A DNA stretch of 17,258 bases from an uncultured Deferribacteres bacterium (lineage in GTDB: Bacteria; Zhuqueibacterota; Zhuqueibacteria; Zhuqueibacterales; Geothermadaptataceae), in contig CAXHAT010000168.1 of assembly GCA_964014485.1 (NCBI GenBank), positions 1 through 17,258 of the forward strand. Direction: 5' to 3'. The translations under genes and the position numbers were made by a program. Positions 1-9,943 of the stretch are shown here, piece by piece (within the stretch, counting starts at the first letter, position 1; the number at the start of each line of letters is the position of its first letter). The notes under the pieces are model-generated. The model searched no databases. It worked only from the letters and a program-made list of their open reading frames with translations, and had not been told where the DNA came from.

Positions 1-762
1 CAAGATGGTAATTTGCGATTGATACCACATCCGCCAGACGGCGTCGAATCGGTGTGTTTTGGCAGTTCAGTGATTGTTGGACCAGCAGAAGTCGAATCCA
101 ACCGTCCATTTGCTGCAATCGAAAAGGTTGCCGTCAATATTGCCGAAACTTCTCTTGATATCGTTTATCAATCCGGTGATAGTGCAAAAATTCAATTTGA
201 GGTTGATTCACTGAGGGCACGCGTGTTTGTTACACCGTTCTATGATCCGACAAAACCTTTTGCGACTTTTCGATCGATGTTCGTTTCAGATTCGGTGAAT
301 GATGTCAGCCACATCACTGTTGCCGATACATCACTTCCGATCCTGGGAGACTGGTTGGCATTGAATGAAATGGAGTGGCTGTTTGAACGCAAAAAAACAA
401 GTTTCCATAATACGTCGTCTCCTGATATTTTTATTGAAATTCCTACAAAAGTCGGGGTAGAACGCGACGCAACCCGTATGCCCAATATTTTCACGCTTTA
501 TCAAAACTATCCAAACCCCTTCAATCCTGAGACAACTATAAGATTCACATTGCAAAAAAAAGCGCATGTTCAGCTTAAAATCTTCAACATACTTGGCGAA
601 GAAATCGCAATTTTGGCTGATGAAATAATGGGGCCTGGAGAAAAAAAGATTGAATGGAACGGAAAAAATTTTGGAGGCACCGATGTACCAAGCGGGGTTT
701 ATATTTATTTTATCGAAGCAGAAAACTCGAAAAAAAGTCGGAAGATGGTTTTAGTACGATAA
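1..762 (+). CDS. 5'-truncated secreted protein with C-terminal FlgD-Ig / T9SS type A-like sorting domain
   Basis: The frame is open from base 1 (CAA GAT GGT AAT TTG...). The C-terminus has the typical LYQNYPNPFNPETTIRF...KIFNILGEEI...WNGKN...VPSGVYIY...RKMVLVR pattern. The N-terminal domain is not recognised. Confidence 0.85.
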   Translation, partial: QDGNLRLIPHPPDGVESVCFGSSVIVGPAEVESNRPFAAIEKVAVNIAETSLDIVYQSGDSAKIQFEVDSLRARVFVTPFYDPTKPFATFRSMFVSDSVNDVSHITVADTSLPILGDWLALNEMEWLFERKKTSFHNTSSPDIFIEIPTKVGVERDATRMPNIFTLYQNYPNPFNPETTIRFTLQKKAHVQLKIFNILGEEIAILADEIMGPGEKKIEWNGKNFGGTDVPSGVYIYFIEAENSKKSRKMVLVR

Positions 763-801: not shown

Positions 802-1005
802 TTAACGCATTGCGGCGTAAGCAACCGCTGCTTGCACATCCTCACGCGACAAACGCGGATAGTCGTTCAAGATTTCATCGATAGAAATGTCTTGAGAAAG
901 CTTGTTGAGTATTATTTCAACCGGAATGCGCGTTCCCTTAATAACTGGCTTGCCTAACATGATTTTAGGATTAAGCTCAATGCGGTTTAATAACTGGGGG
1001 TTCAT
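802..1005 (-). CDS. DUF433 family protein (antitoxin-like)
   Basis: The 67-aa product MNPQLLNRIELNPKIMLGKPVIKGTRIPVEIIL...ILNDYPRLSREDVQAAVAYAA carries the GKPVIKGTRIPV and YPxLxxEDV DUF433 motifs. ATG at 1005 is preceded by a purine-rich AAAGAGAG. Confidence 0.9.
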   Translation of the reverse strand: MNPQLLNRIELNPKIMLGKPVIKGTRIPVEIILNKLSQDISIDEILNDYPRLSREDVQAAVAYAAMR

Positions 1006-1196
1006 TTTTGCTCTCTTTGAGTTTGTCCAAAATGTTTTCATTAAATCAAAATATGCATCTTTCGAGCGTAAAACAAATTGAAAAATCAGAAGGTTCTTGC
1101 CGAGCAAAAAGCTTGATGTTTTCGGAATAGACTCGTAGAGTCATGACCATTGTTACATAACCAAGGCCGGGCGGCATAAAAAGGTATGTTTTCTAA

Positions 1197-1883
1197 ATGA
1201 CTCAGCTTAAAACCCTGTTTTTGAGTACAATTATTAGCGTCTTCGCATTTCTGCTACACACGTCTTCCGCATTTGCCCAAAGCGCCGGTTCTGACACCAC
1301 CAAACTTGAGCGTCCAAAGTTCTCCATGACGCCGACGTGAGTGGGCTGACCGGGCGAGGGCGCGCCGCTCCGTGGGAGCGGAATTCATACCAACTGGACA
1401 TTCTCAGCACGCTTTGTCGATACGGACCTGGAGCGACCGCGCTGGCGTTTTACGGCAAATTATCGATTGCACCAGCGTTTACAAATCGGCGTTGAATACA
1501 ATCCGCTGGAGAAGGAAATCGGGCCGCTGGCGTCGCTGTTTTTTTTGACCGAAACGGAACGGCGCCCGGCACTGTTTTTGGGCACAAGTTCGGATCGTAT
1601 CGGCTCTCCCGCCGGTGAACAATCATACTTTGCTACGGTGAGCAAGTATTTCCCCAAGCTGCGGACGTCATTTTACGGCAGCTTGAATTATTCGGAGTGG
1701 GACGAAGGCTTCAACCTGCCGTTCGGCGCCGCCGTCGAGTTCGGCAAGGGCTTTTCTCTCCGCCACATGTACGACGGCGACCGCTCGCACTTACTGCTCA
1801 ATTACTTCGCCAGCCGTTTCGGCGTGCATTTGATGTACGTGTGGTATGAAAGGTTGGGCGTTTCGCTGTCCGCCGGGTTTTAA
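1197..1883 (+). CDS. Putative exported UxxU di-selenoprotein with C-terminal outer-membrane beta-barrel-like (YjbH-like) domain, 228 aa
   Basis: ATG1197 gives the signal peptide MTQLKTLFLSTIISVFAFLLHTSSAFA|Q, then ...FSMTPT-TGA(1338)-V-G-TGA(1347)-PGEGAPLRG... The frame continues without further stops into the 1467..1883 ORF. It shows alternating hydrophobic/aromatic strands and a terminal Phe (GVSLSAGF), and a hairpin lies downstream of the TGAs. Confidence 0.75.
1365..1381 (+). promoter_or_regulatory. Candidate bacterial SECIS stem-loop
   Basis: CCGCTCC-GTG-GGAGCGG forms a perfect 7-bp GC-rich stem with a G-initiated apical loop. The loop begins 22 nt after the second TGA and 31 nt after the first. 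Confidence 0.6.
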
Positions 1884-2118: not shown

Positions 2119-2805
2119 ATGAAAAAATTCATAACCGCTTCTGTTCTTTCGCTCATTTTAACAAATATTCTTGCGGCGCAGGGACAGGAAATTCCGAAAA
2201 AAGCCCTGTGCGCCGTATGCGTGCTGCGCGGCGAAACCGAAAAAGAAAATGTCAAAGCGCATGCGAAATTTGACGGCGAAACTTACTACTTTTGCTCGAA
2301 AGGCTGCGAGAAAGAATTTCTTGCCGACCCAAAAGCTTACACCAAGCCCGTTTTCCCCCGCCCTGCTCCGAATATGGCCGTAACAACACTGGATGGAAAA
2401 GACGCAACTCTCAAAGACTTCCTGGGCAAAGTCGTTCTGCTGGATTTTTGGGCGACATGGTGTAAACCGTGCCTTAAAATCATGCCGGAGTTACAAGCGT
2501 TGCACGCCGCCAACGCGGACAACGGCTTTACCGTCGTGGGCGTCTCCATCGATGAAGGCAAAAACAGTCTCAAGAAAATTCGCAAATTCCTGGGCAAGCT
2601 CAATATTTCATACCCGATCTTTTGGGACAGCAAAGCGACGCCTGCGTGGCATACGTTCAAGGTTAAAGCGATTCCGGCGACCTTTCTGATCGACAGAGAC
2701 GGTCAGATCGTCGGCCAATGGGCAGGCGTTATCGATCACAAAGAAATTGAATCGGCGACGGCAAAAATTTTGTCGCCCGTAGACGCTCCAAACGAGAACG
2801 AGTAG
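2119..2805 (+). CDS. Exported YHS/TRASH domain + TlpA/ResA-like thioredoxin (redoxin) fusion
   Basis: Signal peptide, CAVC...YYFCSKGC (YHS/TRASH metal-binding pattern), and VVLLDFWATWCKPC...IPATFLIDRDG (TlpA-type CxxC with cis-Pro loop). Confidence 0.92.
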   Translation: MKKFITASVLSLILTNILAAQGQEIPKKALCAVCVLRGETEKENVKAHAKFDGETYYFCSKGCEKEFLADPKAYTKPVFPRPAPNMAVTTLDGKDATLKDFLGKVVLLDFWATWCKPCLKIMPELQALHAANADNGFTVVGVSIDEGKNSLKKIRKFLGKLNISYPIFWDSKATPAWHTFKVKAIPATFLIDRDGQIVGQWAGVIDHKEIESATAKILSPVDAPNENE

Positions 2806-3061: not shown

Positions 3062-3589
3062 ATGCAAGACTTGCGCTATCCGATCGGGGAATTTAGCTTT
3101 TCAGACGCCATCTCATCTAGCCAAATCGAAGAATCGATCCGAGATATTGAGGCAGCGCCAGAAAAACTTCGCGCCGCCGTTGCAGGACTTAACGATGAAC
3201 AATTGGACACGCCCTATCGTCCCGAAGGCTGGACGGTGCGACAAGTCGTCCACCATATGGTTGACAGCCACATCGGCAGCTATGTGCGCTTCAAATGGGC
3301 GCTGACGGAAGACACGCCAATGATCAAAACCTATGATGAAAAAACATGGGCTGAATTGAAAGAAGCGCGGACAGGCCCAATCGACATGTCGCTTCTTATC
3401 CTCGAAGCATTGCACACGCGCCTGGTGGTGATGCTAAAAAACTTGAGCGAGACAGACCTGCAACGATCTTTCATTCACCCTGAGTTCAACAGGCAAATTC
3501 GGCTCGACCAAAATATCAGCCTTTACGCGTGGCACGGCAAACATCATGCGGCTCATATCACAGAGCTTCGCAAGCGCAAAGATTGGTAG
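3062..3589 (+). CDS. yfiT: YfiT/BstA family bacillithiol S-transferase (DinB superfamily)
   Basis: LRYPIG, LDTPYRPEGWTVRQVVHHMVDSH, IKTYDEKTWAEL and YAWHGKHHAAHI motifs, with a strong AGGAGG RBS. Confidence 0.92.
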   Translation: MQDLRYPIGEFSFSDAISSSQIEESIRDIEAAPEKLRAAVAGLNDEQLDTPYRPEGWTVRQVVHHMVDSHIGSYVRFKWALTEDTPMIKTYDEKTWAELKEARTGPIDMSLLILEALHTRLVVMLKNLSETDLQRSFIHPEFNRQIRLDQNISLYAWHGKHHAAHITELRKRKDW

Positions 3590-3697
3590 CGGCGCGCATT
3601 TCTCAAAAGTTGAATCGTCCTGCAAAAACAGGGGTTTGAGCGTAATGACAAATTGGTAATTGACGCGAATTCACGTGACTTTGCTCAGGAGAGCTTT

Positions 3698-4141
3698 ATG
3701 CAAGCAAGGATTGCTTTTTTTCCAACGTTTTTGTTGTTAATCTGGGGCTTATCGGGCTGCGCCGGGGGCGGCAAATTAGCGAATACCGAAAAAATCGACC
3801 CGAGTTGGGCCGGTCTATGGAAGGGGAAATTGCTGCTCGCGGAAGCTAATCGGTTGACGCGGCCCATAGAATTGGATGTTGTTTTCACCAGCACAAATAT
3901 CCGCGCTTTTTGGACAGACTCCACCGAAAACCTGAAACGGCTTCCCGTCCGTCAGTTGCAGCTTGAAAACGGTGATATTTCCTTCAAAATTACTTACGAA
4001 TCTTTACGAGGCATAGACGCTTTTCTTGCATGTAAAGGCCAACGATCCGGCAAAGATCTGGTGCTCAATGTTCTGTGGCGCGAGGGCGGCAAGACGTTTC
4101 GGGGCGGCGTGCAAGCGAGGCGATTCATCCAAAGCAATTGA
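3698..4141 (+). CDS. Hypothetical lipoprotein
   Basis: ATG3698 follows an AGGAGAG RBS. A hydrophobic stretch ends in the lipobox LSGC, and the body is beta-rich. Confidence 0.75.
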   Translation: MQARIAFFPTFLLLIWGLSGCAGGGKLANTEKIDPSWAGLWKGKLLLAEANRLTRPIELDVVFTSTNIRAFWTDSTENLKRLPVRQLQLENGDISFKITYESLRGIDAFLACKGQRSGKDLVLNVLWREGGKTFRGGVQARRFIQSN

Positions 4142-4655: not shown

Positions 4656-5627
4656 ATGGAGCATTTAAAACCTGTTGAAATTTCTGACATTTTTACCGCC
4701 CGCAAGCGAATTTCCCCCCACATCACGCCAACACACGCGAACAACTACCCTGCTCTTGATCATCTCTTCGGCGGCGAGGTTTGGGTAAAGCATGAAAACC
4801 ATCACCACACGGGCGCATTCAAAGTGCGCGGCGGGATCAATCTGTGTGCGGCGATGTCGAAAAACCAAAGAAAGCGCGGCATTGTGGGCGCGTCCACTGG
4901 GAATCATGGTCAGTCATTAGCCTACGCAGCTTCATTGTTTGATATGAAGGCACAAATTTTCGTTCCCGAAGAATCAAACCCGGAAAAAATCCGGGCGATG
5001 AAACACTTTGGAGCTGAAATTGTATATTTCGGCGAAAACTATGAGACTTGCCGCAGACAGGCCAAGTCCGTCGCGAACGAACAGGGGATGCGCTTTGTTT
5101 CGGGCGGCAATGAGCCGCTTTTAATCGCAGGCGTGGGCACTTATGCTCTTGAGCTTTTTGAGCACGTACCCGATTTGGACGTGCTGTACGTGCCCGTCGG
5201 CGGCGGCAGTGGGGCGTGCGGATGTTGCGTTGCAGGGCAAGCTGTAAGCCCAAAAACCAAAATTATTGGCGTGCAATCGACGCACGCTTCAGCGGTTTAC
5301 CAGTCCTGGAAAACAGGCGAAGAAAAAACGACCGAGACTGCCGATACTTTTGCGGAGGGCTTGGCGACGCTGGCGGCGTTTCGTTATCCGCTGCAGATGC
5401 TGCGAACCGGCCTCGACGATTTTGTCCTGGTCGATGATGACGAACTTAGACAAGCCGTTCGTCTATTATTCACGTACACTCACAACGTCGCGGAAGGCGC
5501 CGGAGCAGCGGCTTTTGCAGCAGCTTACCGTGATCGTAAAAGCCTGGCAGGTCGCAAAGTCGGCGTTATCATGAGCGGAGGAAATTTGACTCTGGAGACG
5601 CTTACAAAAATTTTAGTGGAAAAATGA
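4656..5627 (+). CDS. PLP-dependent threonine/serine dehydratase (TdcB/IlvA-like, no regulatory domain)
   Basis: KHENHHHTGAFKVRGG (PLP lysine), ASTGNHGQ, VPVGGGSG and SGGN motifs, with a GAGGAG RBS. Confidence 0.92.
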   Translation: MEHLKPVEISDIFTARKRISPHITPTHANNYPALDHLFGGEVWVKHENHHHTGAFKVRGGINLCAAMSKNQRKRGIVGASTGNHGQSLAYAASLFDMKAQIFVPEESNPEKIRAMKHFGAEIVYFGENYETCRRQAKSVANEQGMRFVSGGNEPLLIAGVGTYALELFEHVPDLDVLYVPVGGGSGACGCCVAGQAVSPKTKIIGVQSTHASAVYQSWKTGEEKTTETADTFAEGLATLAAFRYPLQMLRTGLDDFVLVDDDELRQAVRLLFTYTHNVAEGAGAAAFAAAYRDRKSLAGRKVGVIMSGGNLTLETLTKILVEK

Positions 5628-9001: not shown

Positions 9002-9943
9002 ATGCATCAACGATTACGATTCGTTGCCATGATTGCGCTAACCGCGCTCCTTTTTTCGGCCTGTAGCAGCGGGCGAATGTCTACTCGCAGAGCTTCTGAA
9101 CGCCTCAAGCCTGCCGAATCACTCCCTGAGCGAGAACGCTCACAATCTCCGCATAACTTAGTCATCCGCATTGGGAATGTCGCCGACAGCGGGCCAAGTT
9201 ACAAAAACTTTGTGACGCTCACAATAAACGGCAAAGAAATCGCACCGGAAAGAGCGGAACATAACTTGAAATCAGACTACGTTTACAAATTTCATTTAGC
9301 TCCCGGCGCTTATGACGTTAAAGCTAAATACCATGTCGTCGGCTTTTGGCGGAAAAGAGTTTATCAAATTCGTACGGATGAACGTGTCAGGATTCTGCCG
9401 AATTCGCGCACTGAATTATCCATTGATCTTGAAAAAGATCGGGGCGGCTTCCCCAGAAATAAGAAAAACTTTTTCGCGATCAGGCAATTTGATTTCGGCG
9501 AGTCGGCTGTTGTGAGCGAAGCGCCTAGACCGACGCGCAAGATTGAAAAGCTGGAACGACAAGAAGCTCCCAGAGAAAAACTCAGAGCCCCGAAACGACA
9601 ACTTAAGGAAGAACAACCACTCGAAAGAACGGATCAGCAAACGGTTACGCCTGAGCCACCGGCAGTTCAAGTAACGCCTCCCGCTCCGCCTGTCCAGCAA
9701 CCAGGCTTGTCTCCGGGCCGCATTAAGCTGCAAATCAATTCGATTCCGGTTGGCGCAGACATTTACGTCAACGACCGGTTTGTCGGCCAATCCCCGGCCA
9801 GGGTTATCATTGATCGCAGCGAAGGACATATTATTCAAATCACAAAAGCGGGCTACAAGGAATACTTGAAAGTGATTGATGCAGGCGAGTTGGTCAACAA
9901 GAACGATCTGCAGGTTATCGTTCGGCTCGAAAAAGACAATTGA
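9002..9943 (+). CDS. PEGA domain-containing lipoprotein
   Basis: ATG9002 follows GGAGG, with lipobox FSAC, a Pro/Gln-rich linker and a C-terminal LQINSIPVGADIYVNDRFVGQSP...HIIQITKAGY (PEGA). Confidence 0.85.
   Translation: MHQRLRFVAMIALTALLFSACSSGRMSTRRASERLKPAESLPERERSQSPHNLVIRIGNVADSGPSYKNFVTLTINGKEIAPERAEHNLKSDYVYKFHLAPGAYDVKAKYHVVGFWRKRVYQIRTDERVRILPNSRTELSIDLEKDRGGFPRNKKNFFAIRQFDFGESAVVSEAPRPTRKIEKLERQEAPREKLRAPKRQLKEEQPLERTDQQTVTPEPPAVQVTPPAPPVQQPGLSPGRIKLQINSIPVGADIYVNDRFVGQSPARVIIDRSEGHIIQITKAGYKEYLKVIDAGELVNKNDLQVIVRLEKDN

Follow-up and report, generated by a model that had tools for sequence, protein, structure and literature searches.

A probable double-selenocysteine outer-membrane beta-barrel protein with a UxxU motif and a YHS-thioredoxin partner in an uncultured bacterium of the Zhuqueibacterota

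The stretch of DNA analysed here (the window: 17,258 nucleotides (nt) of contig CAXHAT010000168.1, assembly GCA_964014485.1, from an uncultured bacterium of the phylum Zhuqueibacterota) carries at 1197..1883 on the plus strand a gene of 228 codons plus TAA, which very probably is a complete and functional gene for a genuine outer-membrane protein with two selenocysteine (Sec, U) residues. The conservation of its two in-frame UGA codons strongly supports that both are recoded and do not act as stops. A single frame runs from ATG1197 to the TAA at 1881-1883, and its sole breaks are TGA at 1338-1340 (codon 48) and TGA at 1347-1349 (codon 51), in the context ACG TGA GTG GGC TGA CCG; homologues align with it over the whole length, signal peptide and C-terminal Phe included, and have two in-frame TGA codons. 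The read-through product of 228 residues has no Cys codon (neither TGT nor TGC) and four TGG codons, and it ends in ...SAGF. Its first 27 amino acids (aa; 1197..1277, plus strand) form a putative signal peptide ending in ...SSAFA before a Q, recognised by eye in the sequence; homologues have variable hydrophobic N-termini in the same place. A preliminary description of this DNA had pointed to the hidden frame from ATG1197 broken by two TGA codons at CxxC spacing, to a signal peptide cleaved between AFA and Q and to a Cys-free product of 228 aa with a Phe end, all of which are present in the sequence. Its statement that TGA is not globally recoded is likewise borne out by the three codons it cited (4139-4141, 5625-5627 and 9941-9943), which are genuine stops, so that TGA is an ordinary stop within the window; many homologues of the UxxU barrel gene themselves terminate in TGA.

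Gene calling under translation table 11 lists only one open reading frame (ORF) in this frame, a truncated one of 138 aa with a TTG start (1467..1883, plus strand). That annotation would truncate the gene had been foreseen, and the public gene calls agree: in a word-indexed protein search (600 relatives), 118 of 120 among the matches listed are 137-172 aa long and begin after the TGA positions. The two full-length database proteins among the matches listed, P0003 and P0011, have W at both TGA positions. A metagenome locus (L106) whose product is nearly identical to P0011 has TGA at both positions where P0011 has W, and the W in entries of the P0003/P0011 type probably reflects gene calls made under code 4 on short contigs. 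A 151-nt contig from a public run matches 1289-1439 without difference; it possibly comes from the same sample as the window and so is not independent. The DNA contigs of public runs cover parts of the window, and no RNA run is listed among those that contain this sequence. Another public-run contig, from a related strain, joins the window sequence at 1344 and reads ...ACC TGA AGC before the join, with the first TGA kept and, after it, Ser where the window has Val.

When 167 genomes of the phylum were searched in six frames, 16 matches came up, and the 15 that cover the motif, from four families and at 51-99% identity, all have exactly two in-frame TGA codons, in the columns of codons 48 and 51 (13 of 13 if the two unpublished genomes among them, G158 and G162, are left out). 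The 16th match is weak and partial, and covers residues 98-188 only. The translations share the motif APTUSGUPGEG[AG]PLRGSG (U standing for TGA); the signal peptides ahead of it vary, and the barrel behind it is conserved. At one locus (L025:1477-1746, genome G157) both TGA codons and the hairpin described below are kept, but beyond residue ~85 the family frame is lost, with a thioredoxin fragment close behind; a frameshift, a deletion or faulty assembly may account for this break.

Metagenomes add a more diverse set. In a scan with TGA-x-[GA]-TGA-PGEG as the pattern, 118 stretches came up. From the 80 of these that were retrieved, a family filter (motifs DR[IL][GSF][ST][PA] or RP[RQK]W) kept 27; the other 53 were taken for chance matches and dropped before counting, and divergent members were possibly lost with them. 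The 27 loci share U-x-[GA]-U-PGEG in sequences as different as LPPUTGUPGEGSPLRASG and VPSUPGUPGEGIAVRGTAS, and the protein is conserved on both sides of the motif, at identities to the window protein down to about 35%. The window residues that flank the Sec pair, APT-U-x-G-U-PGEG, are kept in every homologue match that covers the region. Because the TGA codons and the residues around them are conserved in every such homologue, the paired pattern is far beyond chance.

In distant homologues, the same two columns are occupied by Cys. An exhaustive search of representative proteins yielded 175 matches at E<=1e-3, among them distant full-length relatives that carry APTCAGCAGEAR, with Cys at both TGA columns (motif APTCAGCAGE); two alignments place the Cys of distant homologues in the column of the second TGA. 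Genome contigs were searched for such loci with a C/W pattern that is unable to match TGA, so that only Cys forms could be returned. All 17 loci retrieved in this way, mostly labelled Fimbriimonadaceae, Chthonomonas or Armatimonadota, have TGT or TGC at both positions, in mixed synonymous forms. No conserved hairpin was found behind the Cys codons in these 17 Cys-form loci. One distant homologue, P0134, reads PACVGWPGEG in its gene call, with Cys in the first of the two columns and W in the other; if this W is a code-4 call of TGA, the protein may be an intermediate CxxU form.

Within the coding sequence, 3' of the TGA pair, lies a hairpin of the selenocysteine insertion sequence (SECIS) type, CCGCUCC-GUG-GGAGCGG (1365..1381, plus strand; minimum free energy (MFE) of -11.5 kcal/mol for the hairpin only). 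It begins 15 nt past the second TGA, and its loop is 22 nt from the second UGA and 31 nt from the first. In a set of 41 distinct sequences, none of them chosen for the hairpin, 96.5% of the pair cells are standard pairs, as against 31-61% after a shift of the 3' arm by 1-3 columns. Changes on both sides occur in six of the seven pairs, with 23 compensatory cells, a result reached by 0 of 500 shuffles, and RNAalifold recovers the same helix. Compensation is seen in arms such as CCGCUUC/GAAGCGG, GCGGUUC/GAACCGC, UUCCUCG/CGGGGAA and UUGCUCG/CGAGCAA, and the pairing is kept while the peptide encoded over the hairpin varies (PLRGSG, AVRGTA, FLGSGN, LLGASN). The synonymous sites of the hairpin are also unusually fixed: among 13 phylum sequences its P, L, R, G and S codons have codon identities of 1.0, 0.85, 1.0, 0.85 and 0.72, compared with mostly 0.24-0.62 for other invariant degenerate codons.

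The published model of bacterial SECIS elements (bSECIS) describes a loop of 3-9 nt with G in the first two loop positions, a stem of 4-16 bp, a distance of 16-37 nt from UGA to loop and an MFE of -7.5 or lower (PMC13188914). The window hairpin falls within this model for both UGA codons, with its 7-bp stem, 3-nt loop, spacings of 22 and 31 nt and MFE of -11.5. The loop begins with G in 41 of 41 sequences (GTG in 20, GGG in 18, GTT in 3), and the hairpin-only MFE is -7.5 or lower in 34 of 41. Since its loop lies within the accepted 16-37 nt of each UGA, one hairpin can serve both.

The genome from which the window comes (8.4 Mb, 97% complete) has the machinery for Sec insertion: selD (377 bits), selA (567 bits) and selB (332 bits) all score above curated cut-offs, and a tRNA-SeC(tca) found by ARAGORN is the sole UGA-reading tRNA among 47. 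The genome's own selD (contig C68, 143-1069, minus strand) is itself a selenoprotein gene with an in-frame TGA (...TCG-U-AAK...), and 12 nt beyond this TGA lies a 5-bp hairpin with a GGUC loop, which provides an internal comparison. Across the phylum, selD is above cut-off in 127 of 167 genomes and in 11 of the 15 that carry the UxxU gene. The preliminary description had suggested that homologues, Sec machinery and a bacterial SECIS be looked for, and each search came out in its favour, with TGA or Cys at both positions between flanks conserved on both sides, with selA, selB, selD and tRNA-Sec all in the genome, and with a covarying hairpin of the published type 3' of the TGA codons.

Downstream of the motif the protein is predicted to form a 12-stranded outer-membrane beta-barrel (residues ~67-228, 1395..1880, plus strand) that ends in Phe. 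The AlphaFold2 model, built on a 31-row alignment, has a predicted local distance difference test (pLDDT) score of 88.5 and a predicted template modelling score of 0.76. It consists of a leader helix, a low-confidence linker (residues 31-37), an N-terminal segment that bears the UxxU motif (pLDDT ~81-82) and 13 strand elements over residues 67-227, two of which are contiguous. The closest structural matches are FapF (5o65; Z 16.1, root-mean-square deviation (rmsd) 2.4, 168 residues aligned; Foldseek E 2.9e-5), the COG4313 channel (4rl8; Z 15.7, rmsd 2.8, 167 aligned) and KdgM (Z 15.5, rmsd 2.7, 153 aligned), followed by autotransporter barrels (Z 13-14), LpxR (Z 13.8) and PcoB (Z 8.7). The outer-membrane barrel proposed in the preliminary description thus stands: the prediction is a barrel and its top matches are 12-stranded. 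The features of the class are present, namely a signal peptide, a closed barrel of about 12 strands (predicted) and a C-terminal aromatic residue. Outer-membrane barrels with an even number of strands have both termini on the periplasmic side; because an even strand number puts both barrel termini in the periplasm, the UxxU segment should, according to the model, lie in the periplasm or in the barrel lumen. Five polar residues are invariant (E100, D133, R134, D193, H198).

The likeness to FapF, KdgM and the COG4313 channel is one of fold only, at 8-13% identity, and the window protein has no Pfam match. Scans of the read-through protein against Pfam and NCBIfam gave no family at E<=1; neither NF041115, the model for UxxU metal-binding (seleno)proteins, nor PF00578 nor NF040769 matched, and the motif is not on a thioredoxin fold, the model being a barrel. 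The label 'YjbH-like' had to be abandoned: the window protein and the Cys homologues P0154, P0147 and P0134 match no Pfam family at E<=1, PF06082 (YjbH) included, and the only trace of PF06082 is that 14% of the members of one protein Atlas cluster, that of a Cys homologue, carry it. The protein Atlas clusters for the natural Cys homologue are named solely 'outer membrane beta-barrel' and 'hypothetical'. From the comparison with selenoprotein L that had also been drawn, the analogy of the UxxU motif can be kept; the fold cannot, as a barrel takes the place of the thioredoxin domain.

The gene at 2119..2805 (plus strand) encodes a likely partner, with a signal peptide, a YHS domain (Pfam, 8.9e-8) and a TlpA/ResA-like thioredoxin domain with the motif WCKPC (AhpC-TSA, 2.1e-24); its NCBIfam matches to ResA and TlpA are both under the cut-offs. 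In 25 of 41 other Sec loci a local tblastn search found a homologue of this YHS-thioredoxin next to the barrel gene, mostly directly downstream and, in L072 and L099, upstream. At L076:1189-2457 (minus strand) a single ORF of 423 aa comprises a signal peptide, a YHS domain, a TlpA-like thioredoxin (WCAPC), UxxU and the barrel, and to judge from its sequence this fusion is a Rosetta-stone link between the two window genes. Two further loci (L066 and L099) have a YHS-like domain ahead of UxxU, and the barrel proteins of the Cys lineage carry 2-3 N-terminal YHS domains.

In the Cys-form loci a thioredoxin gene without YHS lies directly downstream in 13 of 17 cases, several of them with a stop/start overlap. 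At seven of these loci (L028, L029, L032, L034, L037, L038 and L043) the thioredoxin ORF starts 8 nt before the barrel stop ends (e.g. 4560 versus 4567), and such an overlap suggests translational coupling. When the Cys-form pair of L037 was modelled as a complex, the ipSAE was 0.33 (best control 0.00), with runs agreeing in at least 82% of contacts and a partner pLDDT of at least 89; the mark used is reached by 116 of 157 solved complexes and by 2 of 215 mismatches, and passes at 0.60 or below are wrong more often than right unless the pair is likely beforehand. The predicted complex weakly supports the pairing of barrel and thioredoxin. Other neighbours occur where the thioredoxin is missing: ArsR/HxlR-type winged-helix regulators lie beside the UxxU gene on the same strand at L081:767-1396 (minus strand) and L121:2795-3352 (minus strand), and a gene for cytochrome c assembly (CcsA-like) follows the UxxU gene in L020.

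We propose that SelB with Sec-tRNA(Sec) would serve both UGA codons via the single in-frame SECIS-type hairpin, and that the product would consist of a signal peptide, a short periplasm-facing segment with PT-U-VG-U-PGEG and a 12-stranded outer-membrane barrel ending in Phe. Its context suggests that the UxxU pair could act as a redox-active or metal-binding diselenol, with diselenide/selenolate chemistry presumably available to it. The co-operonic, periplasmic YHS-TlpA thioredoxin would then hold UxxU in the reduced state and may deliver metal to it or take metal from it; in other lineages the partner appears to have been fused to the barrel protein, or its YHS domains to have moved onto it. 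Because YHS/TRASH domains recur and ArsR neighbours occur, binding or passage of a metal or metalloid is the role we consider most likely, perhaps at an outer-membrane conduit that captures a thiophilic metal or metalloid or gates its passage; by analogy, such a metal-handling role is quite possible, if short of probable. The full picture, of an outer-membrane conduit with a diselenol metal(loid) site at its periplasmic entry or plug, serviced by a YHS-TlpA reductase/metallochaperone, with one SECIS for two Sec and as founder of a new family, is one that we put forward tentatively.

Two of the alternatives would deny selenium to this protein. The locus might be a pseudogene, or its TGA codons sequencing or assembly errors, with the short ORF from TTG1467 or nothing at all as product. 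This explanation can draw on the table-11 call of 1467..1883 only, on the 118 of 120 listed database calls that begin past the TGA codons and on the homologue that looks broken after about residue 85 (L025), and yet it is extremely improbable, given that the TGA codons stand in identical columns in 15 genomes and 27 metagenome loci across which the protein is conserved, that distant homologues have Cys codons in both columns, and that a barrel made from residue 91 onwards would miss the signal peptide and the first strands; the public-run contig, not itself independent, is also identical to the window over 1289-1439. Nor is it at all likely that the TGA codons are read as Trp or another standard residue, through local recoding or a suppressor, to give a WxxW motif. 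The W at both positions in P0003 and P0011 and the C..W of P0134 would fit this reading, but L106 has TGA at both 'W' positions of P0011, no tRNA other than tRNA-Sec has the anticodon UCA, TGA ends many genes (homologues of the UxxU gene included), homologues replace the pair with Cys and not with Trp, and a covarying SECIS-type hairpin follows the TGA codons; we take it to be very improbable, if less so than a pseudogene or an error.

The reading as a double-Sec outer-membrane protein has its own difficulties, which weigh against it. The presence of selenium in the protein is a prediction from sequence. Four of the 15 carrier genomes lack a selD above cut-off; three of them (G150, G157 and G163) have selA, and G160, which is 78% complete, has neither selA nor selD above cut-off. 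Conversely, selA is present in five of five Cys-form genomes, so the machinery does not explain why some members have Sec and others Cys; the notion that Cys forms are confined to genomes without Sec machinery was rejected on the same count. As the metagenome pattern demanded both TGA codons, the 27 loci are uninformative on mixed or non-Sec forms and on their frequency. Seven of the 41 hairpins are above -7.5 as hairpin only (they reach -8.6 to -12.0 once 3 nt of flank are added at both ends), and an Rfam scan of 1150-1950 at E<=10 gave no SECIS family, just two chance miRNA matches. A single SECIS that serves two Sec codons is uncommon. The thioredoxin neighbour was not found in 16 of the 41 Sec loci, three of which are cut at the gene's end, and the proposed metal role leans on domain names (YHS/TRASH, ArsR) and on analogy.

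The remaining alternatives accept the Sec pair and concern its function. UxxU might be a catalytic redox centre that has no metal role, in an outer-membrane or periplasmic enzyme that reduces peroxides, disulfides or polysulfides and that the TlpA-like thioredoxin recycles. Most selenoproteins with UxxC, CxxU or UxxU are thiol oxidoreductases (PMC13188914), the best matches of the partner are ResA, TlpA and AhpC-TSA, a CcsA-like gene follows the UxxU gene in L020, 12-stranded outer-membrane barrel enzymes are known (e.g. LpxR, Z 13.8), and the invariant E100, D133, R134, D193 and H198 could line an active site. On the other hand, YHS/TRASH metal-binding domains are repeatedly fused or adjacent, in tandem in the Cys forms, ArsR-type regulators stand beside two loci, and the barrel protein matches no oxidoreductase family, and on balance we find a purely catalytic centre somewhat unlikely. 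It is improbable that the pair is a purely structural diselenide, e.g. one that locks an N-terminal plug in the barrel. Among the top matches are indeed barrels whose lumen holds a segment, the alignments of these matches begin between model residues 38 and 51 (FapF at 38; AIDA-I at 48; Hbp, NalP and the COG4313 channel at 50; EstA at 51), and the N-terminal segment is modelled with a pLDDT of ~81-82; a dedicated reductase-type thioredoxin partner, however, speaks for a site that has to stay reduced, and two Sec codons for a structural bridge would seem an unusual cost.

Several known systems resemble the proposed double-Sec barrel in part. In periplasmic systems TlpA/ResA act as reductases that hold the Cys pair of a client reduced, and P1B-ATPases place tandem small metal-binding domains before a membrane conduit with a Cys-pair entry site. 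The client here would differ from these in being an outer-membrane barrel with a Sec-Sec pair, and the likeness is an analogy only, proposed from sequence. FapF, the COG4313 channel, KdgM/NanC and autotransporter beta-domains share the predicted 12-strand fold, the signal peptide and the C-terminal Phe, and to our knowledge none of them has an N-terminal CxxC/UxxU motif or a thioredoxin partner. Selenoprotein L and the SelL-related proteins of NF040769 have the UxxU spacing; they differ in their thioredoxin fold and eukaryotic SECIS in the 3' untranslated region, and the window protein does not match NF040769. The neighbouring thioredoxin protein matches that model below threshold (E 0.0012, 18.5 bits versus a cut-off of 120).

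Recoding of UGA by SECIS and SelB is itself well known, and a 2026 review lists 119 selenoprotein families in its Table 1, nearly all with Pfam or NCBIfam identifiers (PMC13188914). UxxU occurs there in a Prx-like thiol:disulfide oxidoreductase (PF00578, UxxC/UxxU), in NF041115 ('putative mercuric reductase') and in an FmdB-family putative regulator (TIGR02605). These have in common with the window protein a Sec pair with CxxC spacing, Cys/Cys homologues and a presumed role in thiol redox or metal chemistry; the window protein differs from them in being an outer-membrane barrel, as opposed to HMA, thioredoxin and zinc-ribbon proteins, and in matching none of their models. The same review names two outer-membrane selenoproteins, the GSU2204 family (MtrB/PioB barrel, NF041027) and a TonB-dependent receptor with an FCYXU motif (NF049945), which likewise place Sec within an outer-membrane beta-barrel of diderms. 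Both have a single Sec and far larger barrels, and belong to other families.

The family of the UxxU barrel is not among the 119 families of that Table 1 (PMC13188914), and it is described nowhere in the part of the literature searched, which includes the available parts of PMC9312934 and PMC2398784. As far as the available part of the source goes, it may coincide with the GOS 'hypothetical protein GOS_A' (2008, without a model). Most likely the selenoprotein family is a new one, widespread and apparently uncatalogued; its recoding is of a known kind, its architecture is unusual and its partner is well supported. At present nearly all of its database entries are 'hypothetical proteins' cut short at the front, with signal peptide, Sec pair and first barrel strands missing, which means that a whole outer-membrane protein family is mis-modelled across uncultured lineages (some relatives are labelled Latescibacterota by NCBI). 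The correction would add a double-Sec family to bacterial selenoproteomes and a clean natural example of two UGA codons served by one hairpin. It also points to selenium chemistry at the outer membrane tied to a YHS-thioredoxin partner, and the link to this partner is a testable hypothesis on periplasmic handling of metals or redox equivalents. If the metal-conduit proposal were true, the system would be an outer-membrane counterpart of the P1B-ATPase layout of tandem metal-binding domains and Cys-pair entry, with selenium replacing sulfur.

Other ORFs of the window (13-762, 802-1107, 3062-3589 and 3653-4141) were considered as parts of the system and rejected, having no counterparts beside the homologues. 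Those that flank the two genes encode a type IX secretion C-terminal sorting domain (Por_Secre_tail; 13-762, plus strand), DUF433 (802-1107, minus strand) and DinB_2 (3062-3589, plus strand).

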